In this document: positions 15,109 through 39,290 of the stretch, piece after piece
Layout: each line of letters opens with the position of its first letter
Numbering within the stretch: position 1 is the stretch's first letter
NCBI GenBank assembly: GCA_030699355.1
Contig: JAUYMZ010000428.1
Location: forward strand, 1 to 39,526
DNA from: Bacteroidota bacterium
GTDB lineage: Bacteria > Bacteroidota > Bacteroidia > UKL13-3
Direction of reading: 5' to 3'
Length of the DNA: 39,526 nt
Notes under the pieces: model-generated
The model's database searches: none
What the model was told of the DNA's origin: nothing
Seen by the model: the letters and a program-made list of their open reading frames with translations, nothing else
Position numbers and translations under genes: made by a program

Positions 15109-15250
15109 GTTTACGCAACCTAGATAAATATTGAATTGACTTATATAAATAAATTATTATTTTGCTCACCCAAAAGAAACAAAACTTTGAGGCATCAAAT
15201 GATGTTTCATGTTTTGGTTCGAACCGAAAAAAATAAACAGAAATAGATAT

Positions 15251-18480: not shown

Positions 18481-18508
18481 TGTCACAATTATTTCTATAT
18501 TTGTGACA
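18481..18508. promoter_or_regulatory. Inverted repeat TGTCACAA-N12-TTGTGACA (candidate operator 2) overlapping a TATATTTG -7 box
   Basis: The core is GTCACA-N14-TGTGAC at 18482..18507. TATATTTG (18496..18503) matches TAnnTTTG. The antitoxin ATG is at 18508, which implies a leaderless or very short-leader mRNA. Confidence 0.55.
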
Positions 18509-19119
18509 TGAAAGAATCGGTGAAACATATTATTGAACTGAAAATCAATAGATTTAAGCCTGGACAAGTCTTTTTGCCTTCCGATTTTAAGGAACTAGGC
18601 ACTTCTACCGCTATAAGAAAAGCACTTTCTAGGCTTGTCGAAACTGGGCAAGTGGAAAGAATGGGACAGGGAATCTATGTAATACCAAAAAATGACAAGG
18701 TATTTGGAAAAGTATTGCCATCCATGGAGCAGTTAGCTGAAGCATTGGCAAAAAAGGAACATGTTAAAATAAAACCTTCAGGACAATACGCTTTGAATAA
18801 AGTGGGGCTATCTACTCAAGTACCAATGAGGTTGGTATTTCTAACCACTGGAAATTCAAAAAGAATTCAGATTGGTAAAAACGCGATCATATTCAAGTCT
18901 ACGACCGCCAAAAAACTATCGATGAAAGGAGACATCACGAGTTTGTTGTTTTTAGGATTAGAAGAACTTGATTTACAAAAAATATCACCGACACAAATGA
19001 ATAGAATAATGGAGCTTTTGAAACTAGAGAGCCATGAAAATTTAAAGTATAATTTGCGATTGGCTCCATCAAAAGTGAGCGATTTTATTGTCAAAAATCT
19101 TTTAAACCCTGTACTATGA
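18508..19119 (+). CDS. AbiEi/DUF6088-like transcriptional antitoxin (type IV TA system)
   Basis: N-terminal wHTH-like segment (GQVFLPSDFKELGTSTAIRKALSRLVETGQVERMGQGIYVIPK) and central ALNKVGLSTQVPMRLVFLTTGNSKRIQIG match my memory of this family. The stop overlaps a downstream ATG (ATGA). Confidence 0.75.
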   Translation: MKESVKHIIELKINRFKPGQVFLPSDFKELGTSTAIRKALSRLVETGQVERMGQGIYVIPKNDKVFGKVLPSMEQLAEALAKKEHVKIKPSGQYALNKVGLSTQVPMRLVFLTTGNSKRIQIGKNAIIFKSTTAKKLSMKGDITSLLFLGLEELDLQKISPTQMNRIMELLKLESHENLKYNLRLAPSKVSDFIVKNLLNPVL

Positions 19120-20469: not shown

Positions 20470-20692
20470 TTAACTCTTTAATCTCTCCTTGATGGGTGGA
20501 GGTATAAGAAACCAAAATTTGAACCAAAGAATCGTAGTAATTTTCGAGGTGCTTAATATTTATTTCTGGATGCTCTTTGTTTGGATTGGTTACCGGAAAT
20601 TCATTGATGTATTTAGATAATTCTGGATGCTTATCATTAATCAAAAGCGTAATTTTTAAAATGTCTTCGTTTAGTTGTTTTTCTGTTTTCAT
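20447..20692 (-). CDS. Small hypothetical protein (start probably at MKTEKQLNEDILK)
   Basis: ORF only. The C-terminal ...LRPLAAGL is encoded by the tandem 14-mer repeat, so the native 3' end may have been replaced. Confidence 0.45.
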   Translation of the reverse strand: MKTEKQLNEDILKITLLINDKHPELSKYINEFPVTNPNKEHPEINIKHLENYYDSLVQILVSYTSTHQGEIKELRPLAAGL

Positions 20693-20794
20693 ATAAGTAT
20701 AATTTAGGTTGTTATCAGGTAGCATATTTTTTATCACAACATTTTATTGCAAGTAAAAAGCAAAAAATTTTAGTTTGATTGGCTAGCTGTAATT

Positions 20795-20841
20795 AAAAAA
20801 CCATAGCATTACGCGTTGTTACCACAATTATAATGCTATGG
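20795..20841 (-). terminator. Terminator-like hairpin on the minus strand (11-bp perfect stem, then T6)
   Basis: Plus strand: AAAAAA-CCATAGCATTA-(19 nt)-TAATGCTATGG. On the minus strand this reads stem-loop-stem-TTTTTT. It lies about 100 nt upstream of the small ORF start, with no ORF of 60 aa or more upstream of it. Confidence 0.45.
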
Positions 20842-20961
20842 CAACTTAGACCTGTTACATAAAAAAGATAAAAACTTACATAAATAGAGCATTAAGTTAG
20901 GTGGGATGAAAGTTGAAAAAAATGGCTTCTGGCTTCTGGCTCTAAGTAAATAGATTTGTGG

Positions 20962-21010
20962 CAATATAGATACCCGCCGCAGGCAAAATAGATTCGTGCA
21001 TTCGTGGCAA
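20962..21010 (-). repeat. REP-like cluster, copy C (right arm of the inverted pair)
   Basis: The reverse complement is TTGCCACGAATGCACGAATCTATTTTGCCTGCGGCGGGTATCTATATTG. Confidence 0.8.
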
Positions 21011-21262
21011 GAATATTCGTGGCAATAAATTCCTCATTTAGCTTAGTGTTGATTTATATTTTTATTTCGAAACCAAAAGTTAGAAGTATTTGGCGTAGAA
21101 TGCCAGATACAAACTTGGACAATTGATTTTTTGAATATTATGCAAACACCTTCGTAATAAATTGCAAAATACACTAAATTATTACAAACCATAAATACCC
21201 ATCAATTATCATGATAGAAAGTATAGCCATAATATTGTACCACATTTTTAATACAACAAATT

Positions 21263-22114
21263 ATGAAAAACTATTTTACAAACAAAGCCATGATTATTTT
21301 ATGTATGGTATTCATGGTTGCTCAATCCTCTAAGGGACAAAATTTTTATGTTAAGTTTTCTGGTGGTTATGGATTAGGATCTAGTCCAGATGCATTTGGG
21401 ATGAATAACAGTTCACAAACAGGAAGCTTGGAAACGAACACTAAAGTAAATTTAACACTTGGTACAGGTGTTAATGTTGCTGGTACGCTGGGATACTCAT
21501 TTAACGAAAATATTGGAACCGAACTAGGGGTTTCGTATTTCATGGGCTCAAGTTCTTCATTTAAAAGCAGCTATTCTGGTTCATTTTCTTCAGAATCCTA
21601 TTCGGCAGAATTATCTGGAAAAATGTTAATGGTGGTTCCATCATTGGTATTAAGTCATACCTTTAATAGAATTAAACCCTATGCTAAGTTTGGACTAATT
21701 GTAGGACTTGGTTCAGCCACAATAAAAAATGATTATGAAGATTTTGACATCTCAAATAATGACAAAGATTATGGAAGCACTACCACAAAATTAAGTGGTG
21801 GATTGGCACTTGGATTAAATAGTGCGATTGGTATTTCATATGAAATAAACGATAGAATTTCTTTATTTGGAGAATTGCAGAATGTTAATTTAAACTATTC
21901 TCCAAAACAAGGTGAGGTTACAAAAAGCAGCCTAAATGGGGTGGATAATTTATCAACACTAAAACCTAGAGAAATTAAAACAGAATTCACAGATTCGTAT
22001 ACAATAGATAGGTCGCAAAATCCTGATGAAAATGCGCCAAGTAAAGAGATTTCACCAAATCTCCCCTTTAGTAATATTGGCTTTAATATAGGTATAACCA
22101 TTAACCTTAATTAG
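21263..22114 (+). CDS. Outer-membrane beta-barrel protein (OMP_b-brl-like), stand-alone gene
   Basis: Signal peptide (MIILCMVFMVAQSSKGQ), then an alternating hydrophobic pattern rich in G/S/Y/F (YVKFSGGYGLG, GTELGVSYF, GLNSAIGISYEI). Confidence 0.7.
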   Translation: MKNYFTNKAMIILCMVFMVAQSSKGQNFYVKFSGGYGLGSSPDAFGMNNSSQTGSLETNTKVNLTLGTGVNVAGTLGYSFNENIGTELGVSYFMGSSSSFKSSYSGSFSSESYSAELSGKMLMVVPSLVLSHTFNRIKPYAKFGLIVGLGSATIKNDYEDFDISNNDKDYGSTTTKLSGGLALGLNSAIGISYEINDRISLFGELQNVNLNYSPKQGEVTKSSLNGVDNLSTLKPREIKTEFTDSYTIDRSQNPDENAPSKEISPNLPFSNIGFNIGITINLN

Positions 22115-22136: not shown

Positions 22137-22198
22137 GACCCCAAAATAGCTTAGACCAATAAAATTGGCATAACCTATTTTGGGGTCTTGTTTTTTTT
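22137..22198 (+). terminator. Rho-independent terminator
   Basis: GACCCCAAAATAG-(25 nt)-CTATTTTGGGGTC form a 13-bp perfect stem, followed by TTGTTTTTTTT. Confidence 0.7.
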
Positions 22199-22309
22199 GC
22201 TCCTAAGCTTATCAGTTGAGTTAAGCAAGTAAATCGGCTAAAAATATACCGATAACTCAATTGCATTACCGTTAACTAATAATCATATATTGGTAAATAG
22301 TGCCATAGC

Positions 22310-22317
22310 TATTTTTG
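22310..22317 (+). promoter_or_regulatory. Candidate -7 box TATTTTTG for the 22331-34708 operon
   Basis: It matches TAnnTTTG and ends 13 nt before the ATG at 22331. A TTG lies at 22290..22292, 17 nt upstream of the box. Confidence 0.4.
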
Positions 22318-22330
22318 AGTTAGAAATGCT

Positions 22331-24028
22331 ATGAAAATATTTAACTCATTAGGGCTTTATTTGTTTGGTGCTTGCATACTCATTGGCGAGGCAAAAGCGC
22401 AGGAAAAAAAGTTTTCTTTGAAAGGAAATACGGGTGTTTATAGCGATTTTTATTCCCTCACAAATAATACAAATGGAAATACTTTGGCAAGAAGACCGCC
22501 CCTAAATGGAAGGTTTGTATTTAATGCCACTTTAAGTTTTCATAAATTTTCTTTACCAATTAGTGTACTTATATTTAACAAGCAATTTAGCACCGTTTAC
22601 CCCACCCTCCCCAACGAAAATTTATGGGAATTTATAAGTAATCCAGGAAACCGTGTGGGCATTGCACCCAAATATAAATGGATAGAACTGCAATTAGGTT
22701 CGCATGTTCCAAGGTTTTCAGAATTAAGCATCGGTGATTTACCTCAATTTGGCATCGGCCTGAACCTAAGTCCGGGTAAATTTAGGTTATCTGTTTTCAG
22801 TGGCTTGAGTGCGCAAGCGATTCAACCAGATAGCGCACGCAATGTGGCTGGGCAGTTTAAACAGCGCATGCAAGCTGCTAAAATTGGGTTTGGTGCAGAA
22901 GAATCTACACATATTTATCTTATTGCTGCCACCCTTGAAGATGATACTAGCTCTATTCAAAACACCAAGCGTTTGTTGATGCCTAAAAAAGGGCTGGTAA
23001 CTACCATAGATTATCGCTTAAATTTAGGAAAAAAACTATGGCTAAAAGGTGAAATTGCGGGCTCTGCATTTACCAGAGACCTACAAAGTAAAAAAATAGA
23101 TTCTACCCAACTACCTATAGACATTCCTACTCAAATTTTTGTTTTTCAGGAATCGAGCCGCCTGGATTATGCTTCTGTAATGACCCTAGGAAAAGAAGGT
23201 AAAATCGTTGGATTTCAAATTAATGCCAAATACATTGGAGATGGTTTTTATGCAGTTGGATATCCGTTTATGCAAACAGACAGAATGGATATTACAGTTG
23301 ACCCTAGGATTAGCTTATGGAATGGGAAATTTAATTTACAAGGCAGCGTTGGAAAAAGGTTAAATAATTTAAGTGGCATTCGCAGTGCAGTGTCTACCCA
23401 ACTATTAGGCATGGCCAATCTACAAATAAACTTTACTGAAAAGTTAAGTGCAGCAGCCAACTACTCTAATTTTGGATTTACCAATACCATTGCCAATGAT
23501 ACATTTAAAATAAACATGATTACTCAATCTATTGGGTTCAGCCCAGTTTATATGAGCAATGGGAAACACAACAGCCATTTTGTTAGCTTTACAATTAACA
23601 AGGATGAATTTAGAGATTATAATATTGTTAGTGGCAGTACCAATAACAATGATATGTTCTCTTGGATGCTAAATTATGGCTTAAGTGGTTTAAAAAAACC
23701 ATATAAATGGAACCTATTATACAACCAACTCAATAATCAAATGTATGCCGGCGAATTGCGCATGCAATCTATACATACAAGTATTTCCTATTCATTTTTT
23801 AAAAAGAAGTGTTTAACCCAATTAGGCTTTACTTATTCAGAAACGAGCCTATCTAGCAATGCGCCATCTGTTCAATTGTTAACCAATATAGGCGTAAAAT
23901 ATACACTCAATAAAAAAACCAGTTTTAGTCTTGCAGGCAATATCAATAATTTTAGTTATGGTGATACCAAACCAGGAGCATCATTTATAGAGAACTTTCT
24001 TAAAACATCAGTCACCTATCAATTTTAA
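22331..24028 (+). CDS. Predicted outer-membrane beta-barrel protein (565 aa), first gene of the candidate system
   Basis: Signal peptide (LFGACILIGEAKAQ), beta-strand-like alternation throughout and a C-terminal ...KTSVTYQF (aromatic terminal residue typical of BAM substrates). No TonB plug or POTRA motif recognised. Confidence 0.7.
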   Translation: MKIFNSLGLYLFGACILIGEAKAQEKKFSLKGNTGVYSDFYSLTNNTNGNTLARRPPLNGRFVFNATLSFHKFSLPISVLIFNKQFSTVYPTLPNENLWEFISNPGNRVGIAPKYKWIELQLGSHVPRFSELSIGDLPQFGIGLNLSPGKFRLSVFSGLSAQAIQPDSARNVAGQFKQRMQAAKIGFGAEESTHIYLIAATLEDDTSSIQNTKRLLMPKKGLVTTIDYRLNLGKKLWLKGEIAGSAFTRDLQSKKIDSTQLPIDIPTQIFVFQESSRLDYASVMTLGKEGKIVGFQINAKYIGDGFYAVGYPFMQTDRMDITVDPRISLWNGKFNLQGSVGKRLNNLSGIRSAVSTQLLGMANLQINFTEKLSAAANYSNFGFTNTIANDTFKINMITQSIGFSPVYMSNGKHNSHFVSFTINKDEFRDYNIVSGSTNNNDMFSWMLNYGLSGLKKPYKWNLLYNQLNNQMYAGELRMQSIHTSISYSFFKKKCLTQLGFTYSETSLSSNAPSVQLLTNIGVKYTLNKKTSFSLAGNINNFSYGDTKPGASFIENFLKTSVTYQF

Positions 24029-24034
24029 TACGCT

Positions 24035-27000
24035 ATGAAACCATATCTAGTAAGCTTTCTGTTGATTCTTCTATTTGGCAAATTTAGCCAAAGTCAAACC
24101 ATCCAATTGGTATTGAGTCCGAAACCCTCGCCTTATGTTTCTGATTGGACAAGCAAGAGAGAAACTGCGCAAATTATGGTTAGCAATCCTACAAGCAATA
24201 CGATAGATGCCAAAGTAAAGACCCAACTGTTTTTAAATGGAAGTACCTTGTATGCAGAAACAAAAACAAACGCAATGCCTATCATATCTATTAACCCTGG
24301 AATGAGTGTGTATGGTTCAGACGAAATTTACCCAGCTACAGCCATTCAGTTTCAAGGCACCAATATGAATAGCGTTTTACAAACAGGCAAAATTTCGGAT
24401 GGCGTATATACCCTCTGTGTGCAATTGGTTCACCCAGTAACGGGCTTAGCTTTAACCTCACAGCCGCCAGTTTGTAAGGTATTTACCATTGTAAGTTACC
24501 AAGCACCCATTTTATTATATCCAGCCAATAATGCGAGCCTAAACGAAAATATGGCAAGAAATGTATTGTTTAAATGGACAGGAATTAGTCCGAACCCAAA
24601 CGAACCTGTAAGCTACCGACTAAAAGTATTTGAAGTATTGGATGGACAAGCCGATATACAAGCCATTCGGAATAATATACCCATTGTAGAAAAAGACTTG
24701 CTGAACCAAACCCAAAGCATATGGCCTCACGAATTTATGCCTCCAGAAAAAGATAAAAATTATGTTTGGACAGTAGTTGCCCTTGATGCCACGGAGATAA
24801 ATTTTATAGACGGAGATGGTTTTGCACAGCCATTTATTTTAAAAGTAAGACAGCCACAAATGATGGGTATGACGCCTCCACCCAATAATAACTCATCAAC
24901 AAATTCGGGTCCAATTGCCGTTGGAGACACCATAAAAGCAGGCCAAAATGGCGAATTTAAAATTGCCATAACCCAAGTAAGTGTGGCCAATAATGGTAAT
25001 TTAACAGGCAAAGGAAAAGTTTGGATACCATGGATAAAAAGTCACTTTTTAGTTGGCTTTGAAAACATAAAAGTAGACTCAAATAGAACCCTTACCAAAG
25101 GAGGAATTATAGTGGAGAAAAACACCAGTATAAGTAACAACATCGCTACTTATCCGCAAGCATGGGCGCAAAGCCTTGTTGCTGGAAACTCTTGGATAAA
25201 CAACATGATAGATGGAGCTACCAATTATACCAATAATCAGATTAACTCTATTTCTAACTGGGTAGATAATAACAGCGGTTTGCCTCCCTTTAATTACGAA
25301 GCCAATGTATCGGCACCTGTTATTTCTGGCAACGGATTAAAACTCCCATTAGGATTGGTATTTTCGGGAGGCAATCATAAGTTTTTGATTACGGAAATGC
25401 TTTTTAAACCCAACGAATCTAAGTTGATTTTTTTGGTTCAGACCGAATGGATGGATAATGGCGTGGTAAAAAAGTTAGGATTTAAGGGCAGTGGATTTAT
25501 TTTTAAACCCAATAAAGTATTGTTTAACAATGGTAGAATTGAGTTGGTAGAGAATATTGGCTTTTTAAATTCGAACCAAAAGATAGAATATACCTTTAAA
25601 AAAGGCACATCTACCAATGGATGTTATTTGCAATGGGCAGATACAGGTTTGGTATCTGTGAACCTAGACATGGAAGTACAATTTACGAGAGATTGGTTAA
25701 TTCCTATACCATCTTCTAATGGCACCCAGCGCACAAAAGCTACCCTTGTGGGAAATGGAACCAGCATGCAAGACATTATTATTACTGGCAATTTAGGTGC
25801 TTGTGAATTTGTAAAAGTTAAAGGATTTAAAATAAAACAACCTGTAGCTATTGCCCTCGATTTTTCTGATATTAGAAACACCACTCTTATGCAATTTCCT
25901 AAAAACTACCCAGGAGATACAGGCGTAGATTGGCGTGGGTTTTATATACCTATTGCAGCCATTACCATACCTGAAGCGTGGACCAAAAACACCTTGCCTA
26001 TTCCAGTTAATCTATCCCATTTAATCATAGATAACATGGGATTAAGCATGAAAGCGAAGGCAAATAATGTGGTAAATTTAAGTCAGGGCTCTGTAAACAA
26101 TATGAATGCCAGCTTAGACTCTATAGAAATTGCGATTGTAAACAACTCTCTGCAATATGGCAAAGCCAAAGGCTTTTTGGTTATTCCTATTTGCAAAGAC
26201 AGCCTTATTAACCGAATGAAATATACTGCCACCTTTAACCAAAATAATGCCGATAGCGGATTGGAGTTTGTGCTTGTTCCTACACAAGCAATTTACACAG
26301 AATTGTTAAAAGGAGAAATTACCTTAAAACCAAGCTCTTCACTAAGCACTACATTTAAACAAGGCAACATGACCATAAGCTTAAAACTAGATGGCACCTT
26401 TAAATGGAACGATCCGAAATTAATGGCTACACAAAATCAATTAATAAGCGGATTGCCTGCACCAGTAAGGAACCTTGGTATTAAAGGAATAAAAATGGAA
26501 ATGGAATTTGAAAAGTTGAAGCTTGCCTATATCAATAATATGAGTAGCAATATACATACTGCCACCTTTGATATTGGAACATGGAGTTTTGCTAGTCCGC
26601 AAAAGCGCGCATTTAATTTACCCGTAACGATAGCCAACATCCAATATAAAACACTCTCAGTACAAAATTTACCTGCACCCAATAAAGAACTTTTTAGAGG
26701 GGCAATAACTATGGATATTATAGCCAATTTAACAGACGATATTGGAGGAGCAACCAAAATTGGATTAGCATTTGCGTTGCAAACAAATTTAACAAGCAAA
26801 AAATTTAAACCAGAATATAAATGCTCATTTGTGGATAGCCTTCAGGTAAGAATGGATGTAGCAGCTGTTAAGTTTGATGGTTATTTAAAAATATACGACA
26901 ACGATTTGATATTTGGAGATGGGTTTAAGGCAGAAATTAAAGTTAAATTTGTGCCCATTTCAGTTACCTCAAATGCCTTGGTTCAGTTTGGAAATACTGC

Positions 27001-28909
27001 CTATCAAAATGCCAACACACTATACAGATATTGGCGGGTTGAAGCCAATGCTACTTTTAATCCGGGCTTGCCATTTATTGCAGGAATAGGCTTTTACGGA
27101 TTAGGCGGAGGCGCCTATTACAATATGAAACCTATTAGCGCCTTGGTAGCGGGCAAATCTACCATTAGCTTTCAGCCCCAAAAAGGCACATCGGGCTTTA
27201 ACTTAAAAGCAACTATTGGCACCTATCCTAAAGTAGAAACATTTAATATGGATGCCGATATAAATGGCACATTTACACAAGGAAATGGCTTGGTAAAAAT
27301 TACCTTTAATGGCGATTTTTATGTGGCAGCCAGCATACCTAAACGCAGTACAGCTAAAATAAAAGGGAATGTAATTGTAGATTATGATTTTACTGTAAAA
27401 GAATTTAATTTATTTGCCAATGTTCATGTTAATGCCCCCCCTATTACAACGCCTGCTCCAGCAAATTTATCGTTAAATATTAAAGGTAAAGAAAACCTAT
27501 GGTACTTTAATTTTGGGCGACCATCCCAAACAAACACAGTTATAATAAATAATTTTAACGTTTACGAATACCTCATGTTTGGAAATAATTTAACAGATTT
27601 ACCCAACGGGTTTACGAGCGGTTTTAAATCATTATATCAAGAGAAAGTTGGATCTGCCCCCACCTATTCAGGGGCGAGCCAAGGAGGAGTAGATGATAAT
27701 ACTAAAACAGGAAAAGGAATGGCTTTAGGCGTGGGAGTAAAGTTTGACGACCAAATTAACAAACACATATATACCGGTACTTGCAGAAAATGGTCTGTAC
27801 AATCAAATTTGGCAGCGGGAGCCGAACTCCATTTGTCCTTTTTGGAATATGCAAGTTGTGGCAGTATTAATCCTTTTGGTATAAATGGTTACCGGGTAGC
27901 GGGTGGAATTGGCATGTATGCAAGGGCTAACGCCAGTGTTAAAGGAACCCCTAAAAACAATCATAATGGCTGCGACACCAAAAACTATCCCATAGCCGAT
28001 TTTAAAACGGGATTATGGCTACAAGGTGTTTTTCCAAACCCTACCTATTTGGCTGGGCGATTGGAGGGCGATGTTGAATTATTAGGGAACGATAACCTAA
28101 GCAAGCGATTTGAATGGGATTTTCAATTTGGTAATTTTTGCCAAGGAGCACCAGCGCCAGGTGTAATTATTCCAGATCAAGACAAAGCAGGCGATTATCA
28201 AAACGCATTGATACAATATGTTGAACCAAGTATCAATACCAACTTCCCTATTACAGCACCATTAGTAGTAAAATATGGGCTTGAACCAAATAAAGTATTT
28301 GATATTGGAGAAGGCAAAGCAGATGGAACAGTAAAAACACGAACTTTTAGAATGATTGTAAACACTGTAAAATTAGAGGTTAAAAACACCAATGGCGTTT
28401 ATTCGCAACTAACCATTGTAAACAAAAAAAACCTAATTGGAGAATTTCAATATACTGTTAAACCTCCAATAAATGTTAATGGTTTACAAACACTTGGCAA
28501 TAACATTGGTTCAGCTAGCAATTTGGCAACCAATAGTAATACAGGAAATGTAACAGCAGCTCCAAATAACTTTCAAGGACAAATGGTGAACTTTAGTATA
28601 CCAAACCCTACTGTAACAGCAGTTCCATATAACTCTCAAGGGCTAATGGTGAACTTTAGTATACAAAACCCAAATGAACCAGTGGTGCCAAATTACCCAA
28701 ATACACAAACCCTACCCACAAATTACTTAGAAAATAAAAAATCGTATCGATTTACGGTAACAGTTACCCTGCAAGAGTATAACCCCAATAATTATACTTG
28801 GCAAACAGCACTTACCAAAAATGGAACTCCTGTAACACAAACAAAAATTAAACTATTTAGCACGCCAAACCCAATTTCATTTAGCACTGGACCTCATTCT
28901 AATAAATAA
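24035..28909 (+). CDS. Giant secreted protein of unknown function (1624 aa)
   Basis: Starts 6 nt after the barrel gene. It has a signal peptide (FLLILLFGKFSQSQ) and an N/T/G-rich, beta-rich sequence. I recognise no catalytic motif, T9SS tail or lipobox. Confidence 0.8.
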   Translation: MKPYLVSFLLILLFGKFSQSQTIQLVLSPKPSPYVSDWTSKRETAQIMVSNPTSNTIDAKVKTQLFLNGSTLYAETKTNAMPIISINPGMSVYGSDEIYPATAIQFQGTNMNSVLQTGKISDGVYTLCVQLVHPVTGLALTSQPPVCKVFTIVSYQAPILLYPANNASLNENMARNVLFKWTGISPNPNEPVSYRLKVFEVLDGQADIQAIRNNIPIVEKDLLNQTQSIWPHEFMPPEKDKNYVWTVVALDATEINFIDGDGFAQPFILKVRQPQMMGMTPPPNNNSSTNSGPIAVGDTIKAGQNGEFKIAITQVSVANNGNLTGKGKVWIPWIKSHFLVGFENIKVDSNRTLTKGGIIVEKNTSISNNIATYPQAWAQSLVAGNSWINNMIDGATNYTNNQINSISNWVDNNSGLPPFNYEANVSAPVISGNGLKLPLGLVFSGGNHKFLITEMLFKPNESKLIFLVQTEWMDNGVVKKLGFKGSGFIFKPNKVLFNNGRIELVENIGFLNSNQKIEYTFKKGTSTNGCYLQWADTGLVSVNLDMEVQFTRDWLIPIPSSNGTQRTKATLVGNGTSMQDIIITGNLGACEFVKVKGFKIKQPVAIALDFSDIRNTTLMQFPKNYPGDTGVDWRGFYIPIAAITIPEAWTKNTLPIPVNLSHLIIDNMGLSMKAKANNVVNLSQGSVNNMNASLDSIEIAIVNNSLQYGKAKGFLVIPICKDSLINRMKYTATFNQNNADSGLEFVLVPTQAIYTELLKGEITLKPSSSLSTTFKQGNMTISLKLDGTFKWNDPKLMATQNQLISGLPAPVRNLGIKGIKMEMEFEKLKLAYINNMSSNIHTATFDIGTWSFASPQKRAFNLPVTIANIQYKTLSVQNLPAPNKELFRGAITMDIIANLTDDIGGATKIGLAFALQTNLTSKKFKPEYKCSFVDSLQVRMDVAAVKFDGYLKIYDNDLIFGDGFKAEIKVKFVPISVTSNALVQFGNTAYQNANTLYRYWRVEANATFNPGLPFIAGIGFYGLGGGAYYNMKPISALVAGKSTISFQPQKGTSGFNLKATIGTYPKVETFNMDADINGTFTQGNGLVKITFNGDFYVAASIPKRSTAKIKGNVIVDYDFTVKEFNLFANVHVNAPPITTPAPANLSLNIKGKENLWYFNFGRPSQTNTVIINNFNVYEYLMFGNNLTDLPNGFTSGFKSLYQEKVGSAPTYSGASQGGVDDNTKTGKGMALGVGVKFDDQINKHIYTGTCRKWSVQSNLAAGAELHLSFLEYASCGSINPFGINGYRVAGGIGMYARANASVKGTPKNNHNGCDTKNYPIADFKTGLWLQGVFPNPTYLAGRLEGDVELLGNDNLSKRFEWDFQFGNFCQGAPAPGVIIPDQDKAGDYQNALIQYVEPSINTNFPITAPLVVKYGLEPNKVFDIGEGKADGTVKTRTFRMIVNTVKLEVKNTNGVYSQLTIVNKKNLIGEFQYTVKPPINVNGLQTLGNNIGSASNLATNSNTGNVTAAPNNFQGQMVNFSIPNPTVTAVPYNSQGLMVNFSIQNPNEPVVPNYPNTQTLPTNYLENKKSYRFTVTVTLQEYNPNNYTWQTALTKNGTPVTQTKIKLFSTPNPISFSTGPHSNK
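28566..28691 (+). repeat. 63-nt (21-codon) tandem duplication inside the giant gene
   Basis: NNFQGQMVNFSIPNPTVTAVP / YNSQGLMVNFSIQNPNEPVVP. The exact 18-nt ATGGTGAACTTTAGTATA is shared at a 63-nt offset. Confidence 0.75.
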
Positions 28910-28911
28910 CT

Positions 28912-30978
28912 ATGAAATTACATATTTACATATTAATAGCCATTTTATTCGCTGTGTTTAAAATGGCAAATGCACAACAAGAAGAAGTAATTACACATAT
29001 TGTTGGCGTTGGAAGATACACCAATAATGCCGTTGAGCTGCGCTGGATTCCGGAACATTTGAGTGTTAGTAAACACGGCTTTAAAAACGGTTATTTAATT
29101 GAAAGAACCAATAACAACACCAAGAAAGCTCAAATAATAGCAAAAGTATTTCCATATACTAAAGCATCATTTGACTCATTGATTGCTATAGAAACAGACA
29201 ATGAAACAAACGTATTATTAAGTTTTGTATCCGATATAATTTATGGTGAGTCAGAAAAAAACACAGACCCAATAAACTTAGAGGAAGGAATAGGCGACAT
29301 TAAGAATAAAAAAGGAGCATCAGATATGAACGATTTAATACTCTCCCTTTCTGCCATTAAAAACAGTAAGGTTGCTGCTGCCATGGGATTTTTATACATA
29401 GACAAAAGCGCCATGCCTAATACCAGCTATACATATACCATTTCGCCCATTGGAAAAATTGCCATTTACAAGGTTGAACCAGCAAAAATTAGTCTAATAA
29501 GTACAGAGAGTAAACTTAGTTATCAAAGTAAAATATACCCCTATCCTGGCGAAGGAAAATTTACATTTTTTTGGGAAGCAAACCCACAAGTATCGGGATT
29601 TTTCATAGAGAGATCATCCGAGGCAAATGGTCCATTTGTACCCATTAATCAAACCCCATTTTATGCAAGCAAGGGCTGTATGGGTGTGTTTTCAGACGAT
29701 GATATTCCCAATTATACAAACCATTTTTACCGCATTTTCGGTTTAAACCATTTTGGCGAAAAAGTATACATCGGTTCAGCCCAAGGAATGGCTGTAGACA
29801 AAAAGGCACCTGCACAGCCCGCCATACAACAACCCAAACACATTTCCCAAAACAAAGTAGAAATTAAATGGAAGATGAATCAAATTGAATCTGATTTAAA
29901 AGGCTTTATTGTAGCGCGGTCTGATAAAGACACTGGTACTTTTACCATTTTACACCCAAGCATTTTGCCTCCTAAAACCAATACATTTATAGATACTGGA
30001 TTTTCGAAAACAAGCAATAATTATTATGTAATTTACGCCTATGATACCGCAGGAAACATGAGCGTTTCGTACGTTGGATATGTAGTAATTATTGACAGTG
30101 CTGGTCCGACTACACCAACTATTTTAGCCAGTAAAATGGACACTTTGGGTGTGGTAAAAATTAGCATTGAAGCACCCAAAGACTTAGATTTAATGGGCTA
30201 TAAAATATATAGAGCTAATGGCAGCGACCATGAATTTTCATTGGTAAATAATGTATTTCCAACAGACACAACATGGCTTAGCACCAAAGAAATTTTATTG
30301 TGGGATACAGTAAGTTTGAACACAAGTACGCAAGCAGTTTATTACAAAATTAAAGCCCTTGATATGCATTACAATCCCAGTAATTTTACCCCAATTATTG
30401 AGGTAAAGAGAATTGATACCATAGCCCCATCGGCACCAGTATTTACCGACCTTTTGGTTCAGGAAAATACCATAGTTTTACAATTTGAACCATCGCCAAG
30501 TGAAGATGTGGCTGCACATATTATATACAGAAAACTTTACGAAAGCGACCCATGGAAACCAATCGTAATTTTAAAAGGAACCATAAAACAATACATAGAT
30601 ACAGGCTTGGTTAGCAACCAAGAATATTATTATACCATGAAGGCCATAGATAAGAGCAATTTAGTATCAGAGCCTGCAAACGAGGTAAAAGGAATACCAT
30701 ACAACAATGGCCTATTAAAAAAAGTAACTAAGCTAAGCGCAAATAAAACAGATTCGGCCATTTTTGTAAAATGGGAATACGAACGTAAAGACAAAGAACT
30801 AAGCTATATTATATACAAAGAAGACAAAACTGGTAAGCTATTTCAATATGCCATTGTACCTAGCTTTGAGTTTATGGATAAACAAAAATTAGCAAAAAAC
30901 GTATATGCCATAAAAGTAGTGCATATTGATGGATCCAAATCTATACTGAGTGAAAAAATAACAGTAGAAATTGAGTAA
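28912..30978 (+). CDS. Secreted protein with about six FN3-like modules (688 aa)
   Basis: Starts 2 nt after the giant gene and has a signal peptide (LFAVFKMANAQ). Six repeats show the pattern W..........GY.I.R ....... Y.Y.I.A.D..GN.S. Examples are YYVIYAYDTAGNMS, YYKIKALDMHYNPS, YYYTMKAIDKSNLVS and VYAIKVVHIDGSKS. Confidence 0.75.
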   Translation: MKLHIYILIAILFAVFKMANAQQEEVITHIVGVGRYTNNAVELRWIPEHLSVSKHGFKNGYLIERTNNNTKKAQIIAKVFPYTKASFDSLIAIETDNETNVLLSFVSDIIYGESEKNTDPINLEEGIGDIKNKKGASDMNDLILSLSAIKNSKVAAAMGFLYIDKSAMPNTSYTYTISPIGKIAIYKVEPAKISLISTESKLSYQSKIYPYPGEGKFTFFWEANPQVSGFFIERSSEANGPFVPINQTPFYASKGCMGVFSDDDIPNYTNHFYRIFGLNHFGEKVYIGSAQGMAVDKKAPAQPAIQQPKHISQNKVEIKWKMNQIESDLKGFIVARSDKDTGTFTILHPSILPPKTNTFIDTGFSKTSNNYYVIYAYDTAGNMSVSYVGYVVIIDSAGPTTPTILASKMDTLGVVKISIEAPKDLDLMGYKIYRANGSDHEFSLVNNVFPTDTTWLSTKEILLWDTVSLNTSTQAVYYKIKALDMHYNPSNFTPIIEVKRIDTIAPSAPVFTDLLVQENTIVLQFEPSPSEDVAAHIIYRKLYESDPWKPIVILKGTIKQYIDTGLVSNQEYYYTMKAIDKSNLVSEPANEVKGIPYNNGLLKKVTKLSANKTDSAIFVKWEYERKDKELSYIIYKEDKTGKLFQYAIVPSFEFMDKQKLAKNVYAIKVVHIDGSKSILSEKITVEIE

Positions 30979-31011
30979 AACAATTACCTTTATGCTATAA
31001 TTAAAAGCCGT

Positions 31012-31809
31012 ATGAGCCCAGCATTACATGTACTTATTGTTGATGACGAAAAACCAGCTAGAGATAATTTGCGTTTTTTACTTGGCAAATTAGGGCTGAA
31101 CCTAAGCCTCGAAATAGTAGAAGCAGGCAGTGCACAAGAAGCCCGAGAAATACTAAATAAACAAAACATAGAACTCATATTTTTAGATATCCAAATGCCT
31201 GGTGAAGACGGTTTTGATTTTTTATTGAGTATTCCTCATTCTAAATATGCCATTATTTTTACTACTGCGTACCATCAATTTGCCATAAAAGCTTTTAGAG
31301 CTGGAGCCATTGATTACTTATTAAAGCCCATCGATTTTATGGAGCTGCAAGAAGCAGTGTTGAAAGCCAATATTAATCAATCTATTTCTGCTATACATGT
31401 TCCGCAAAAAATAGAAAATTCTGTTTTAAAAGACATTCAGCTACAAGCTAAATCCGGCCAAATTAATAAACTACGTATTGCCAATAAAAATGGATATATC
31501 CTGCTTTCCTTAGCAGACATAAGTTACCTAGAAGCAGATAGTAATTATACCATTTTTCACCTTATAAATTTAAAGAAAATTGTTTCGGCAAAATCGCTCA
31601 AAGAATATGAAGAATTGATAGAAGGTCAGGCATTTTTTAGAATCCATAAAAGCTATCTTATAAACCTTCATCAATTTAAATACATTTCTAAAACCGACCT
31701 AAGTATTGCTGTAATGAATGATGGCAGTAATTTGCCCATAGCGCGCAGAAAATTATCATCCTTTGAAGACACAGCTAAAGCAATGCAGCATGGAAACCTC
31801 TATCAATAG
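31012..31809 (+). CDS. LytR/AlgR-family response regulator (REC + LytTR)
   Basis: The REC domain has VDDE and LDIQMPGEDG (phospho-acceptor Asp). LytTR C-terminal region: YLEADSNYTIFHL...FFRIHKSYLINL. Confidence 0.9.
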   Translation: MSPALHVLIVDDEKPARDNLRFLLGKLGLNLSLEIVEAGSAQEAREILNKQNIELIFLDIQMPGEDGFDFLLSIPHSKYAIIFTTAYHQFAIKAFRAGAIDYLLKPIDFMELQEAVLKANINQSISAIHVPQKIENSVLKDIQLQAKSGQINKLRIANKNGYILLSLADISYLEADSNYTIFHLINLKKIVSAKSLKEYEELIEGQAFFRIHKSYLINLHQFKYISKTDLSIAVMNDGSNLPIARRKLSSFEDTAKAMQHGNLYQ

Positions 31810-34708
31810 ATTGCTGTGCCTTCTTGTCTTTGCCGTTTTCTGCTTAGGTTCAACCAAGGCCCAAGAACAAGTATTTAAAAACATCAGCGTAAAAGATGGG
31901 CTTCCCAGTGCTACCGTTTATTGTATGTTACAAGACAAAAATGGTTTTATTTGGTTTGGCACAGAGAACGGTGCAAGCAGGTTTGATGGGGTAAATTTTG
32001 TGAATTATACCACCAAAGACGGCCTCACAGATAATAGCATTTTATTTATGAACGAGGACCAAGAAGGCAGAATTTGGCTGCATGGTTTTAAAGGATTGCC
32101 TTGTTTTTATTTGGATGATACCATTTACAATGCGAGTAATTGTCCCTTTTTGGCAAGCTTACCCAAATGGGGTTTTGTGCTTTCTGCCAAACAATTAAGC
32201 AATGGAGAACTTTACCTTTCTACCGATATTGGTATTATAAAAATTATAAAAAATAAATTCGAAAATGTTCCTGCAAAATTAGACAATAACAAAAACAATA
32301 AAGCCAAATTAGACTCAAACTTATGGGTTATTATTCCCAGCAAAAAAAATTATAATAGATTGTTTTTCAACGAAAATGAACCCATTATTTACTGGTCGAA
32401 CCAAGGCTTTGTAGACCCACAAAATAGCTATCCAAGTTTGGCGAAAACAAGCATTCATAACAAGTTTTACGAACCTACTTTTCAAGAAAAAATTGGGATG
32501 GACTTTTGGATATGCTCCTATATAGATGGCGTGGCAAAAATAAACAACATACAAGCTAATAATCCAAAGGTAGAAGAATTTTTGAAAGGCATTCAAGTTA
32601 GCATGGTGCTTAAAGACAACGAAGGAAACATGTGGTTTTCTACCTTGGAAAAAGGTGTAATGTTGATGCTTGCCGACCAACAAAACATGAAATATTACCC
32701 ACAAGCACCCTATTTATTTAATGAAAATATCTTAAGGCTATGCAAGCATAAAAATGCAATTTGGGCCGGATTAACTAAAAACAAATTAGCGTATTTAAGT
32801 GCTTCCACCTATCAACAAATAGACTTACCCCAGCACAAAGACCAAATGAAATCTTCTGTATACGATATTGTTGTTGATAAACAGGAAAATGTGATTGTTT
32901 GCACATCTTTTGAATTATTTCAGCTAAGTAAAAATTTAGGTGTACATAGCAAATGGAAATGCAAGCCTATTGAAAATAAAAGGAAAAGTATTTCAACAAA
33001 TAATAAAGCAATGTGTATCGACAATAAAAATAGACTTATTGTGTGCGAAGCATTGTTTTACACTTTTTATAGTTTTGATTCCAAACGAAATACATACCAA
33101 TACGACACATCCTTTAAAATCAATAATAATCGACTATTTTCTTGCTTAGCAAGCAGCAGTGGAGAGGTTTATATTTCGAGCAGAAACGGACTGTTTACCC
33201 TAAACCAGTATCGACTTAACGCTTGTAAAATTAATAGCATATTAGGCGATGAACCCATCATTAAAATGGCAGAACTGCCCAACAAAAACCTTATCTTAGT
33301 TACAAGAAACAAGGGAATTTTAGTGTATGATAAGCAAAAAATTATTCAAACCTTTGGCGAAACAGAAGGCCTAAGCTCCAATATTTGTAACAAAGTTTGG
33401 GTTCAGAACAACCTTGTATATGTAGCAAGTGCCAAAGGAATAAACATATTAAAATTGGTTCAAAACAAATTGATTGTTATACAACACTATGATATTAGCA
33501 ACGGCCTTTTATCTGATGAAATAAACGATGTAAATACCATTGGCAATACCATTTATGCGGCTACAGCATCGGGTTTAAATAGTTTTCAACCAAAAAAAAT
33601 CAGCAAATCTAGCGGTCCGCCCATTTATTTTACGGGAATAAAAAACAATGCAAAAGAAATTTATCGCATGTCAAATCCAGTATTTAAGCAAGCTCAAAGT
33701 TCCTTAGAAATAGGCTACCGAGCCATTACCTTTCAATTGCCTCTCCAAACAGAATACGCTTACCGACTTGTTGGCTTAAACCCCGCTTGGAAAAAAAGTT
33801 TAAACAACCATATAGAATACCCCAACCTACCAGAAGGCCAATTTACATTTGAGGTAAAGGCAAAAAAAGTAAACAGCCAATGGTCTGAACCTATTCAATT
33901 TAGGTTTGAAGTAACTGCTCCCTTTTACAAAAAAATTGGCTTTATTTTGTTTGGGTACAGCCTAGTGCTAGCCCTCCTATTTTGGGGAATATTTGGCTAT
34001 TATAAACACCAAAAAAGGGAGCAAAGAAAAAAGAAATTGATTCAATCTAGGTTGGAAACATTAGAGTTTCAAGCCTTAAATGCCCTCATGAATCCGCATT
34101 TTATTTTTAATGCCTTGAATTCTATTCAGCAATTTTTAAATGAAAACAATGCTTTAGAGGCAAACCAATTTCTTTCAAAATTTGCCAGTCTAATCCGTAT
34201 GAATATGGAATCGGTGATGAAAAGAAACATCTTTGTGGAAGATGAATTGGAGCGTCTAAAGTTATACTTGCGTTTCGAAAAACTGCGCCTTTCCAATAAA
34301 CTTAGCTTTACTATAGAGGTATCAAACGAAGTAGAAATTGAGTTGCTACTCATTCCGCCTATGGTGCTGCAACCTCTGGTAGAGAATGCCATTTGGCATG
34401 GGTTACTGCCCAACAATACCATCCATATTCATATTCAAATTTCGCCTATAGATTCTCGGTTTTTCAAAATAGAAATTAGCGATAATGGCATTGGCTTCGA
34501 TAACAGTAAATTTATAAAACAGCCTCAAAAAGACCCTGGTCACCCAAGCAGGGGTTTAGATTTTATTAATCAGCGATTAAGCTTGTGGACCCACCTAAAC
34601 AATACAGAATTTAGCCTAGAAATAGAACAGTTAAGTTCTGCATTAAGCGATAAAAAACCAGGCACTCAGGTAACCTTAAAATTGCCAATGGTTTTTGAGG
34701 AGGGGTGA
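31790..34708 (+). CDS. Sensor histidine kinase: periplasmic two-component-regulator propeller repeats + Y_Y_Y domain + TM + LytS/YehU-type His_kinase/HATPase
   Basis: Signal/TM segment (LLCLLVFAVFCLGSTKAQ), propeller repeats (VKDGLPSATVYCMLQDKNGFIWFGTENGASRFDG), Y_Y_Y-like segment (EYAYRLVGLNPAWKK...GQFTFEVKA), TM segment (ILFGYSLVLALLFWGIFGYY), ALMNPHFIFNALNSI (His box), LVENAIWHG (N box) and ISDNGIGF (G1 box). I place the start at METSINRL, which overlaps the RR gene by 20 nt. Confidence 0.85.
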   Translation: METSINRLLCLLVFAVFCLGSTKAQEQVFKNISVKDGLPSATVYCMLQDKNGFIWFGTENGASRFDGVNFVNYTTKDGLTDNSILFMNEDQEGRIWLHGFKGLPCFYLDDTIYNASNCPFLASLPKWGFVLSAKQLSNGELYLSTDIGIIKIIKNKFENVPAKLDNNKNNKAKLDSNLWVIIPSKKNYNRLFFNENEPIIYWSNQGFVDPQNSYPSLAKTSIHNKFYEPTFQEKIGMDFWICSYIDGVAKINNIQANNPKVEEFLKGIQVSMVLKDNEGNMWFSTLEKGVMLMLADQQNMKYYPQAPYLFNENILRLCKHKNAIWAGLTKNKLAYLSASTYQQIDLPQHKDQMKSSVYDIVVDKQENVIVCTSFELFQLSKNLGVHSKWKCKPIENKRKSISTNNKAMCIDNKNRLIVCEALFYTFYSFDSKRNTYQYDTSFKINNNRLFSCLASSSGEVYISSRNGLFTLNQYRLNACKINSILGDEPIIKMAELPNKNLILVTRNKGILVYDKQKIIQTFGETEGLSSNICNKVWVQNNLVYVASAKGINILKLVQNKLIVIQHYDISNGLLSDEINDVNTIGNTIYAATASGLNSFQPKKISKSSGPPIYFTGIKNNAKEIYRMSNPVFKQAQSSLEIGYRAITFQLPLQTEYAYRLVGLNPAWKKSLNNHIEYPNLPEGQFTFEVKAKKVNSQWSEPIQFRFEVTAPFYKKIGFILFGYSLVLALLFWGIFGYYKHQKREQRKKKLIQSRLETLEFQALNALMNPHFIFNALNSIQQFLNENNALEANQFLSKFASLIRMNMESVMKRNIFVEDELERLKLYLRFEKLRLSNKLSFTIEVSNEVEIELLLIPPMVLQPLVENAIWHGLLPNNTIHIHIQISPIDSRFFKIEISDNGIGFDNSKFIKQPQKDPGHPSRGLDFINQRLSLWTHLNNTEFSLEIEQLSSALSDKKPGTQVTLKLPMVFEEG

Positions 34709-34725
34709 GTTTTTTTTAAGAAGGG

Positions 34726-34761
34726 TTAGGACATTTAGGACTGGGAGGACAATTAGGACGA
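34726..34761. repeat. Four tandem 9-mers (TTAGGACAT TTAGGACTG GGAGGACAA TTAGGACGA)
   Basis: Read directly from the sequence, 18 nt downstream of the kinase stop. Confidence 0.7.
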
Positions 34762-34795
34762 TTGAGTAAATTAAACGAGTTTAATTTACTCAATC
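34760..34795 (+). terminator. 17-bp perfect inverted repeat (probable operon terminator hairpin, no clear T-run)
   Basis: GATTGAGTAAATTAAAC-GA-GTTTAATTTACTCAATC. Confidence 0.45.
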
Positions 34796-34909
34796 GAAGT
34801 AAATCAAATCTGCGGAAACAAATTAGAAACATCTTATCTACTTTATACTACCAAACAAAACATTTCAAAAAATTTGACCTAAATTCGCGTGCTCAATAAA
34901 AATCGCAAC

Positions 34910-38693: not shown

Positions 38694-39290
38694 ATGAAAA
38701 AATTTAAAAACAAATACCGCACGCAGTCCCAAAGGAAACCAGGATGGAATTATTCATCTGAGGCATTCTATTTTTTAACATTAGTAACCCAAAATAGAGC
38801 ATGCAATTTGTCTAAAATCACTGATGGCAAAACAAATTTATTGGATTTCGGAAAAATTATTGAAAAAGAATGGTTCAAATCATTTGAAATCCGAAAAGAG
38901 TTGTTTTTGCATGCCTTTGTAATAATGCCAAATCATCTACATTGTATTGTAGAAATCAACAAATCAAACGATGAGAAAACGCAAGTCGTAGTAGATACAA
39001 ATTTATCAGAATACCCCATTGATAACATTTTTTCAATTAAACGAAATAAACCAATCAGGTTACCAAAATCTATATCTTCTTTTATAGCGGGGTTTAAATC
39101 GGCCACAAACAATAAAATTGACAATTTTATAGACGAACAAAATTTAGCCATCCCAAAATACAATCGAAAAAATCATTTTTTTCAACCCGATTATCATGAC
39201 CATATCATCAGAAATGATGGTGAATTTATTCGCATTTCAAATTATATTCAACAAAATCCCAAAAATTGGGAGAAAGATAAATTAAAATAA
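38694..39290 (+). mobile_element. REP-associated tyrosine transposase (RAYT; IS200/IS605-like Y1 HUH transposase)
   Basis: 198 aa with FVIMPNHLHCIV (HUH motif) and a C-terminal DYHDHIIRN....I.NYIQQNPKNW (catalytic Tyr helix). It is flanked on both sides by the same palindrome family. Confidence 0.8.

Follow-up and report, generated by a model that had tools for sequence, protein, structure and literature searches.

A conserved and widespread envelope system of Bacteroidota with a large beta-barrel, a giant all-beta protein and an FN3-type partner

Gene organization of the locus

The DNA analysed here, called the window throughout, is a contig of 39,526 nucleotides (nt) from a Bacteroidota bacterium (JAUYMZ010000428.1, assembly GCA_030699355.1), and its positions 22331-34708 hold five co-directional genes which encode a beta-barrel protein of 565 amino acids (aa), a giant protein of 1624 aa, a protein of 688 aa with fibronectin type III (FN3)-like modules, and a LytTR response regulator together with its sensor kinase. 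An initial annotation, made from the sequence alone, had singled out these genes as a possible envelope or cell-surface system that could not be placed in any named class. Our results showed that they form an envelope system which is both conserved and widespread, which has not been described, and which includes a large domain whose fold is unknown; its function we infer from gene order, domain structure and likeness to known systems.

The unit was confirmed on the plus strand in the six-frame list of open reading frames (ORFs), which gave the barrel gene at 22331-24028, the giant-protein gene at 24035-28909, the FN3-protein gene at 28912-30978, the response-regulator gene at 31012-31809 (265 aa) and the sensor-kinase gene at 31790-34708, with intergenic spacings of 6, 2 and 33 nt and then one overlap of 20 nt between the regulator and kinase genes. 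The kinase ORF as called mechanically begins at a TTG codon at 31763; counted from the ATG at 31790 the protein has 972 aa, and this start agrees with the gene call in the relative L007. The ratio of nonsynonymous to synonymous substitution rates (dN/dS) was low for all five proteins (0.05-0.22 in every gene), and these are therefore real and functional genes under purifying selection. Typical N-terminal signal sequences could be recognized by eye on the three structural proteins, none of which carries a lipobox Cys.

A hairpin with a T-run (GGGACCCCAAAATAG...CTATTTTGGGGTC, 22137-22198, plus strand) was read directly in the sequence, and it was missing from our consensus terminator scan because its loop is longer than the scan allows. 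This hairpin most probably ends the upstream gene, which encodes a 283-aa outer membrane protein (OMP), and marks the left boundary of the unit. A -7 box (TATTTTTG, 22310-22317, plus strand) fits TAnnTTTG as a consensus match and lies 14 nt before the ATG of the barrel gene. On the right, a perfect 17-bp hairpin (34760-34795, plus strand) between the kinase gene and purL forms the boundary. The two flanking genes, the one for the OMP_b-brl protein upstream and purL downstream, do not belong to the unit. The initial annotation had described the same genes, gaps and overlap, the same signal peptides, the box before the first ATG and the left hairpin, all of which were found exactly in place, and it had seen no terminator between the structural and the regulator genes; the consensus scan agrees with this, as it gave 8 terminator-like sites in the unit against 12.3 expected by chance and none of them was convincing. 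As for the closing hairpin, its perfect stem stands as described, and its role as a terminator is uncertain since no T-run is attached to it.

Conservation of the gene order

Forty-nine related loci were collected, and the 34 that were non-redundant and had enough DNA were used for a census of gene neighbourhoods. The genome scan for barrel loci was run with the closer alignment A3, the broad alignment A2 being too diverse. The barrel gene was followed on the same strand and within 170 nt by a gene whose product starts with the N-terminal module of the giant protein (hereafter the N-module) in 33 of the 34 loci, and in the remaining locus the N-module gene lay directly upstream of the barrel gene. 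In some loci a single barrel was accompanied downstream by two to four N-module genes. This gene order was kept from 98% down to about 25% identity in metagenome-assembled genomes (MAGs) of Bacteroidia, Chitinophagaceae, Saprospiraceae, Kapaibacteria, Ignavibacteria and Chlorobiota, and the close relatives, which also include Lentimicrobiaceae, all came from MAGs. The census refutes the explanation that unrelated genes have been packed together here by chance and form no system, and the probability of that explanation is practically negligible. The initial annotation had supposed that the barrel could be dedicated to the giant protein and had raised the question whether the trio and the LytTR pair co-occur across Bacteroidota; the supposition is borne out by the gene order, the physical role as anchor or translocator being the part that we propose below, and co-occurrence was seen in the order of the genes, with the sensor present at a part of the loci.

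A homolog of the FN3 protein followed the giant protein in every complete locus examined in which the giant bears the large central domain described below (the core). The pairing of core and FN3 protein was kept at 21-28% core identity in L046 and L047, where the core occurs without the N-module, and it was also kept behind the 5511-aa giant of L049. From these neighbourhoods the FN3 protein appears to be an obligate partner of the core, and the accessory role suggested for it initially is strengthened accordingly by its exchange together with the distal giant, as shown below. The FN3 protein gave one weak, sub-threshold match to Pfam fn3, and when its residues 296-395 were used as a seed, five more weak matches appeared in register, which makes the array of six FN3 modules read from the sequence at the outset plausible; the 688-aa product is plausibly a secreted protein of about six such modules. 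Gene order thus indicates that the trio is composed of two separable and linked modules, one made of the barrel and the N-module and the other of the core and the FN3 protein.

Two barrel/N-module loci were seen in some genomes, namely L024 and L031 on contig CAZTXB010000020.1 and L018 and L023 in the same MAG, and in one such genome the two loci are about 12 kb apart; therefore the system can be multi-copy. Among cultured organisms a link exists only to Chryseobacterium, and it is a distant one, with a 25%-identical barrel and an FN3 protein that is 25% identical over 649 aa. These two homologs flank a type IX secretion system (T9SS) substrate with SprB repeats, and all of these proteins bear generic names; the label 'TonB-dependent receptor' on the distant Chryseobacterium homologs was assigned automatically, and no support for it from Pfam is on record. 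In Chryseobacterium indoltheticum (L009, 1715-11755) the cluster consists of a 490-aa hypothetical protein, the FN3 homolog, the 1075-aa SprB-repeat T9SS substrate, a PKD protein and the distant barrel; perhaps this cluster is a cousin of the system with a link to the T9SS.

Domain structure of the giant protein

Comparison of the giant protein with its own relatives by BLAST divided it into three parts, the N-module (1-285), the core (about 290-1450) and a divergent tail. Residues 1-285 (24035-24889, plus strand) comprise the signal peptide and the N-module, which is about 260 aa long without the signal peptide and has two immunoglobulin (Ig)-like domains with conserved Cys128 and Cys147; its profile gave weak Ig, FN3 or E-set similarities alone. 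Several lines of comparison show that the N-module is a separable module. In another genome, a barrel homolog is followed by a 538-aa protein whose front shares 42% identity with the N-module and whose body is unrelated; of 141 full-length core-family proteins, 120 carried the N-module at their very N-terminus and none carried it anywhere else; and in Chitinophagaceae it also occurs as stand-alone proteins of 293-305 aa. The bodies found behind it were the core, 13 RTX repeats, FN3 with Gly_rich, CBM- or DUF928-like domains, or none, and the client bodies alternative to the core are of extracellular type.

The core occupies residues from about 286 to 1450 (24890-28384, plus strand) and is a non-repetitive, all-beta domain. 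An AlphaFold model of residues 285-1480, built with 22 sequences, was all-beta with a predicted local distance difference test score (pLDDT) of 76.7, and its strands are unusually long (15-23 residues) with tight turns at both ends, a pattern unlike the alternating long and short loops of the barrel model. Foldseek searches with the core against the PDB returned LptD, SlpA and the ApoB100 beta-belt at TM-scores of 0.1-0.2, which is a generic similarity of long sheets, and no credible fold match was found in the PDB or among viral models (TM-score at most 0.2). Self-comparison detected no internal repeats in the core, and a repeat-built fold of the RBG, Rhs or beta-solenoid type was rejected on this ground. 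Pfam, NCBIfam and the PDB gave no match for the core either. The exhaustive search at E<=1e-3 nevertheless collected 1065 cluster representatives of the core family, in proteins of 1400-5500 aa, which are all unnamed and whose Pfam content consists of Ig-like accessory domains alone.

The tail, residues 1451-1624 (28385-28909, plus strand), is an N/P-rich linker followed by a small conserved C-terminal beta segment, and it is the most divergent part of the giant protein (49% aa identity to L007). Its last residues, from about 1565 to 1624 (window 28727-28909), carry a segment conserved in the family as K-x-Y-R-F-x-V ... F-x-T-G/P-P, after which about 15 further residues follow, the last of them usually Lys; this C-terminal segment is not a known sorting domain. 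The 5511-aa relative of L049 (7653-24188) is composed of the N-module, five tandem copies of approximately the first 440 core residues and a full core; the front of the core can therefore be duplicated independently, as a sub-domain.

The barrel and its comparison with known systems

The AlphaFold model of the 565-aa protein, built with 41 homologs, had a pLDDT of 86.5 and a predicted TM-score (pTM) of 0.70, and it is all-beta with about 25-26 strands, the first of which starts at residue 29; the protein carries a signal peptide, and its last residues are ...VTYQF. The beta-barrel called from the sequence is thereby supported by a structural model, in which no plug, POTRA or other periplasmic domain was present. 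The top Foldseek match of the barrel was MtrB (6r2q_B, E 5.6e-11, TM-score on the query (TMq) 0.55), and the other matches were generic large barrels, including those of TonB-dependent transporters, FimD/PapC and LptD. More than 100 homologs of the barrel were found. The 41 members scanned gave weak Pfam matches to barrel families of the outer membrane (OM) alone, and neither Pfam nor NCBIfam has a family for the 565-aa protein of the window.

PHROGs gave nothing useful for the proteins of the unit, and sequence and profile searches of the PDB gave nothing meaningful for the barrel, the giant, the N-module, the core alignment or the FN3 protein. No description of the system or of DUF5777 was found in the literature. 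The initial view that the trio belongs to no named system has thus come through the searches of Pfam, NCBIfam, PHROGs and the PDB and the Foldseek comparison, none of which gave a membership. An origin from a phage or mobile element was considered and rejected, since no relative turned up in viral contigs and PHROGs gave no match.

The closest structural likeness is to the MtrAB(C) porin-cytochrome complex of Shewanella and the MtrB/PioB barrels, where an MtrB-like, plug-less barrel of about 26 strands is encoded beside its partner and three genes provide a barrel, an inserted partner and a surface partner. MtrB forms a 26-strand sheath with MtrA in its lumen (PMC7198977). However, the barrel does not match Pfam MtrB_PioB, and the partner in the unit is an Ig-type module with an all-beta body of 1300 aa instead of a cytochrome. 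Identity with a porin-cytochrome complex was rejected because all five proteins contain zero CxxCH heme motifs.

Two-partner secretion (TPS, type Vb; TpsB/TpsA, CdiB/CdiA/CdiI) resembles the unit in genetic layout, with a barrel gene directly upstream of the gene of a giant exoprotein, a conserved module of about 260 aa right after the signal peptide that is followed by variable bodies, and a downstream gene that co-varies with the variable part. It is accordingly conceivable that the unit performs a TPS-like secretion with release, in which the barrel would be a translocator only, the N-module would be a secretion signal, and the giant and perhaps the FN3 protein would be set free. The barrel is about the size of TpsB (~570 aa), the conserved N-module is found strictly at the N-terminus and the C-terminal bodies behind it differ (RTX repeats included), and several client genes can follow one barrel, all of which suits this explanation. 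Nevertheless we consider it unlikely, because TpsB is an Omp85-type barrel of 16 strands with two POTRA domains (ShlB/POTRA_2), whereas the barrel of the unit has about 26 strands and showed neither POTRA nor an Omp85/ShlB signature in Pfam, NCBIfam or the model. TpsA begins with a TPS domain (Haemagg_act) folded as a beta-helix, whereas the N-module consists of two Ig-like sandwiches and did not match Haemagg_act. The third gene of the unit encodes a secreted FN3 array, unlike that of TPS systems, and the stand-alone N-module proteins of 293 aa would have nothing to deliver.

The T9SS adhesin modules (SprB with PorP/SprF) are found in Bacteroidota too, and they likewise encode a giant surface protein alongside a dedicated OM barrel. 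The C-terminus of T9SS cargo is formed by a domain of type A (Por_Secre_tail) or of type B (TIGR04131), however, and no T9SS C-terminal domain was detected in the giant or the FN3 protein in Pfam and NCBIfam at E<=1. PorP/SprF proteins (PF11751/TIGR03519, ~300-400 aa) were not matched by the 565-aa barrel or the 41 family members, and the targeting information of the unit appears to be N-terminal, not C-terminal. The window encodes an M43 peptidase with PKD and Por_Secre_tail domains at 15209-17479; the host therefore has a T9SS, and the giant protein apparently does not use it. The chaperone-usher systems (FimD/PapC, TMq ~0.4) share a large barrel able to pass folded Ig-like domains, but the unit lacks the usher plug, the N- and C-terminal usher domains, a chaperone gene and pilin subunits, and Pfam and NCBIfam gave no Usher or PapD match. 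SusC/SusD and other TonB-dependent transporters are defined by an N-terminal plug with a TonB box, a barrel of 22 strands and a SusD-like lipoprotein as partner, whereas no Plug, TonB_dep_Rec or SusD match was obtained for the unit.

The very long strands of the core, and its weak Foldseek matches to LptD, SlpA and the ApoB100 beta-belt, would also suit a periplasmic or trans-envelope machine of a structural or lipid-handling kind in the style of TamA/TamB or LptD, of which the long amphipathic sheets would bind lipid or span the periplasm and the barrel would be the OM end. LptD/LptE is similar in its barrel of about 26 strands and in the housing of a partner domain that we propose for the unit, and LptD is among the weak fold matches of both the barrel and the core. 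Such a machine is improbable in our opinion. The TM-scores of the core are too low, and the unit has no LptD/OstA domain, N-terminal jellyroll, lipoprotein partner or housekeeping conservation. TamA/TamB combine an Omp85 protein with POTRA domains and a DUF490 protein with an inner-membrane anchor, whereas the unit gave no match to Omp85, Bac_surface_Ag, POTRA, TamB/DUF490 or AsmA, Foldseek returned no TamB, and the giant has a cleavable-type signal peptide in place of an inner-membrane anchor. In addition, the core is without repeat units, the other bodies carried by the N-module are extracellular-type domains, and replacement as a cassette, a patchy distribution and several copies per genome are unexpected for a housekeeping envelope machine.

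Exchange of a cassette between strains

The comparison in 300-nt identity windows showed that the distal part of the giant-protein gene and the FN3-protein gene differ between strains as one block. DNA identity to L007 was 97-99% over the barrel gene, giant residues 1-465 and both regulator genes, and it fell to 45-78% within approximately 25440-31000 (plus strand), i.e., from giant residue ~466 to the end of the protein and over the whole FN3-protein gene; the boundaries of this recombining allelic cassette are approximate. The pattern was reversed with L011, which was 84-92% identical inside the cassette and 70-84% outside. The synonymous divergence (dS) was about 2.0-2.5 inside the cassette versus 0.06-0.14 outside, and dN/dS inside it was 0.11-0.18. 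The jump in divergence at ~25440 and ~31000 means that the distal giant and the FN3 gene have been replaced together by recombination. The breakpoint in L007 lies after giant residue ~465, with the barrel and the N-module on the conserved side, and these two therefore stay in one haplotype. Such joint replacement is typical of exposed and co-adapted surface components.

The swapping of the distal giant with the next gene between near-identical strains, the diversity of the bodies, the N-module genes that can be multiple, and the order of barrel, giant and partner, which mirrors cdiB-cdiA-cdiI, could also point to a polymorphic system of cell-cell recognition or antagonism of the CdiBAI or TraAB-like kind, with the distal giant as the recognition or toxic part and the FN3 protein as its partner or protector. 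It is an alternative for the biological role, and export by the barrel and the N-module could go together with it. We regard it as rather unlikely, since the variable block, with about 1150 aa plus a secreted FN3 array of 688 aa, is unlike a short toxin tip that is paired with a small immunity protein in the cytoplasm, since no toxin or immunity domain was detected in Pfam, NCBIfam or PHROGs, and since dN/dS is low throughout.

The regulator pair and the repeat upstream of the barrel gene

The response regulator matched Response_reg (5.6e-22) and LytTR (5.7e-17) in Pfam, and its top NCBIfam matches, BtsR and LytR, were both under the equivalog cut-off. The kinase is composed of a Reg_prop propeller with a Y_Y_Y ectodomain, one transmembrane segment, a His_kinase domain (PF06580, 3.2e-16) and HATPase_c. 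By this domain content the two proteins are assigned to the ordinary LytTR two-component systems of the AgrA/BtsR/LytR type. A LytTR regulator and a Y_Y_Y kinase adjoined the unit, upstream or downstream, in about 14 of the 34 loci, and the sensor-linked loci included ones whose clients are without the core; L049 has a hybrid Reg_prop/Y_Y_Y/AraC sensor instead of the pair.

A direct repeat of 11 bp (TACCGATAACT / TACCGTTAACT, 20 nt start to start) lies at 22247-22277 on the plus strand, with its end 33 nt upstream of the -7 box. Both L007 and L011 have retained it amid diverged intergenic DNA, and similar TACCGTT repeats with a 21-nt period stand at similar positions upstream of the barrel genes in L027, L028 and L030. 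With a loosened search the pattern was found in 6 of 38 upstream regions, as compared to a background of 0.01 per 300 nt. The arrangement resembles that of LytTR sites such as those of AgrA and ComE, where two direct repeats are spaced by about two turns of the helix and lie upstream of the target promoter. The repeat is a candidate binding site of the LytTR regulator. Control of the unit by its own sensor pair, as supposed in the initial annotation, is consistent with the linked sensors and with this repeat, to which the regulator would bind.

The window contains three copies of the octamer TTGAGTTA, at 22216-22223, at 22253-22260 on the minus strand and at 22315-22322, so that all copies lie within 110 nt upstream of the barrel gene; one of them overlaps the first TACCG repeat, another abuts the -7 box, and the octamers are partly conserved in L011.

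Neighbouring genes and strain-specific segments

The segment 21102-22143, which holds the gene of the 283-aa OMP_b-brl protein (21263-22114), has no counterpart in L007; from this comparison it appears to be a strain-specific insertion outside the conserved system. The segment 17830-19191 is also missing in the otherwise collinear L007. It contains a gene (18508-19119) of the DUF6088/AbiEi-like antitoxin type; probably a small defence or toxin-antitoxin element has been inserted here. In L007, in turn, a pair of genes (DUF4160 and HTH_3, 20675-21616) separates the kinase gene from purL, and the matching site of the window (34783-34863) has just the 17-bp hairpin, which makes this a small strain indel. 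Downstream of purL, at 38694-39290, there is an ORF of 198 aa with a weak match to an IS200-like Y1 transposase.

Discussion

Taking the gene order, the structural models and the strain comparison together, we give about even weight to the reading that the unit is a self-regulated module, independent of the T9SS, for the export or anchoring of proteins at the outer membrane and for the display of a giant, polymorphic protein together with its FN3 partner. Its first module would be the plug-less barrel of about 26 strands and the two-Ig N-module of the client proteins. All three structural proteins would be exported by Sec across the inner membrane, and the barrel would insert in the outer membrane. 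The N-module would then engage the barrel, most likely in or at its lumen, as a plug or a secretion signal, which can be likened to MtrA in MtrB or LptE in LptD, and in this way the barrel would export the rest of the client, anchor it at the surface, or both, without the T9SS. The second module, composed of the core, the variable tail and the six-FN3 partner, would be a polymorphic surface structure that is swapped as one cassette, and such an exchange would be expected for a surface-exposed structure of recognition or adhesion. The LytTR regulator and the Y_Y_Y kinase would drive expression through the direct repeat upstream of the barrel promoter. Physical docking, surface location, direction of transport, binding of the regulator and the biological role are what we infer here from the gene neighbourhoods and the models.

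Several observations weigh against this reading. A linked sensor was present in just about 40% of the loci within the DNA available, and the repeat, found upstream of just 6 of the 38 barrel genes, is hence no universal feature. Where several N-module genes accompany one barrel, a translocator used in common is a better fit than a plug paired one to one with its barrel. A few core proteins lack the N-module, and the short contigs of L046 and L047 showed no barrel, so that the core does not strictly need the first module. The pTM of the core model was low (0.43), and the overall shape of the core is not fixed by it. The distant barrel of Chryseobacterium adjoins a T9SS substrate and not an N-module protein.

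Taken further, the display module described above would make the barrel and the N-module an unrecognised T9SS-independent pathway of OM export or anchoring in Bacteroidota, Ignavibacteria and Kapaibacteria, with addressing by two Ig domains, and the core a new fold which forms, with the FN3 partner, a polymorphic surface organelle exchanged between strains; we hold this wider proposal only tentatively. Export to and display at the outer membrane of Bacteroidota have so far been explained by the T9SS, by lipoprotein export and by SusCD-type complexes. If the proposal is true, a further route to the surface would be added, with N-terminal addressing, a large barrel of its own and a conserved and widespread gene set.

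The close members of the system are all from uncultured organisms, which limits immediate testability. On the other hand, the linked sensor and the candidate operator offer an experimental handle, and the distant barrel and FN3 homologs in culturable Chryseobacterium (the locus of WP_076559465) are a possible genetic entry point. The core, with about 1150 residues and more than 1000 protein clusters, has no family name or solved relative and makes up a sizeable piece of the protein space that is still without annotation in environmental Bacteroidota and related groups. The exchange of the cassette points to strain-level diversity of the cell surface, and in communities of freshwater, sediment and wastewater this diversity could reflect pressure from phages or predators, specificity of adhesion or the recognition of kin.

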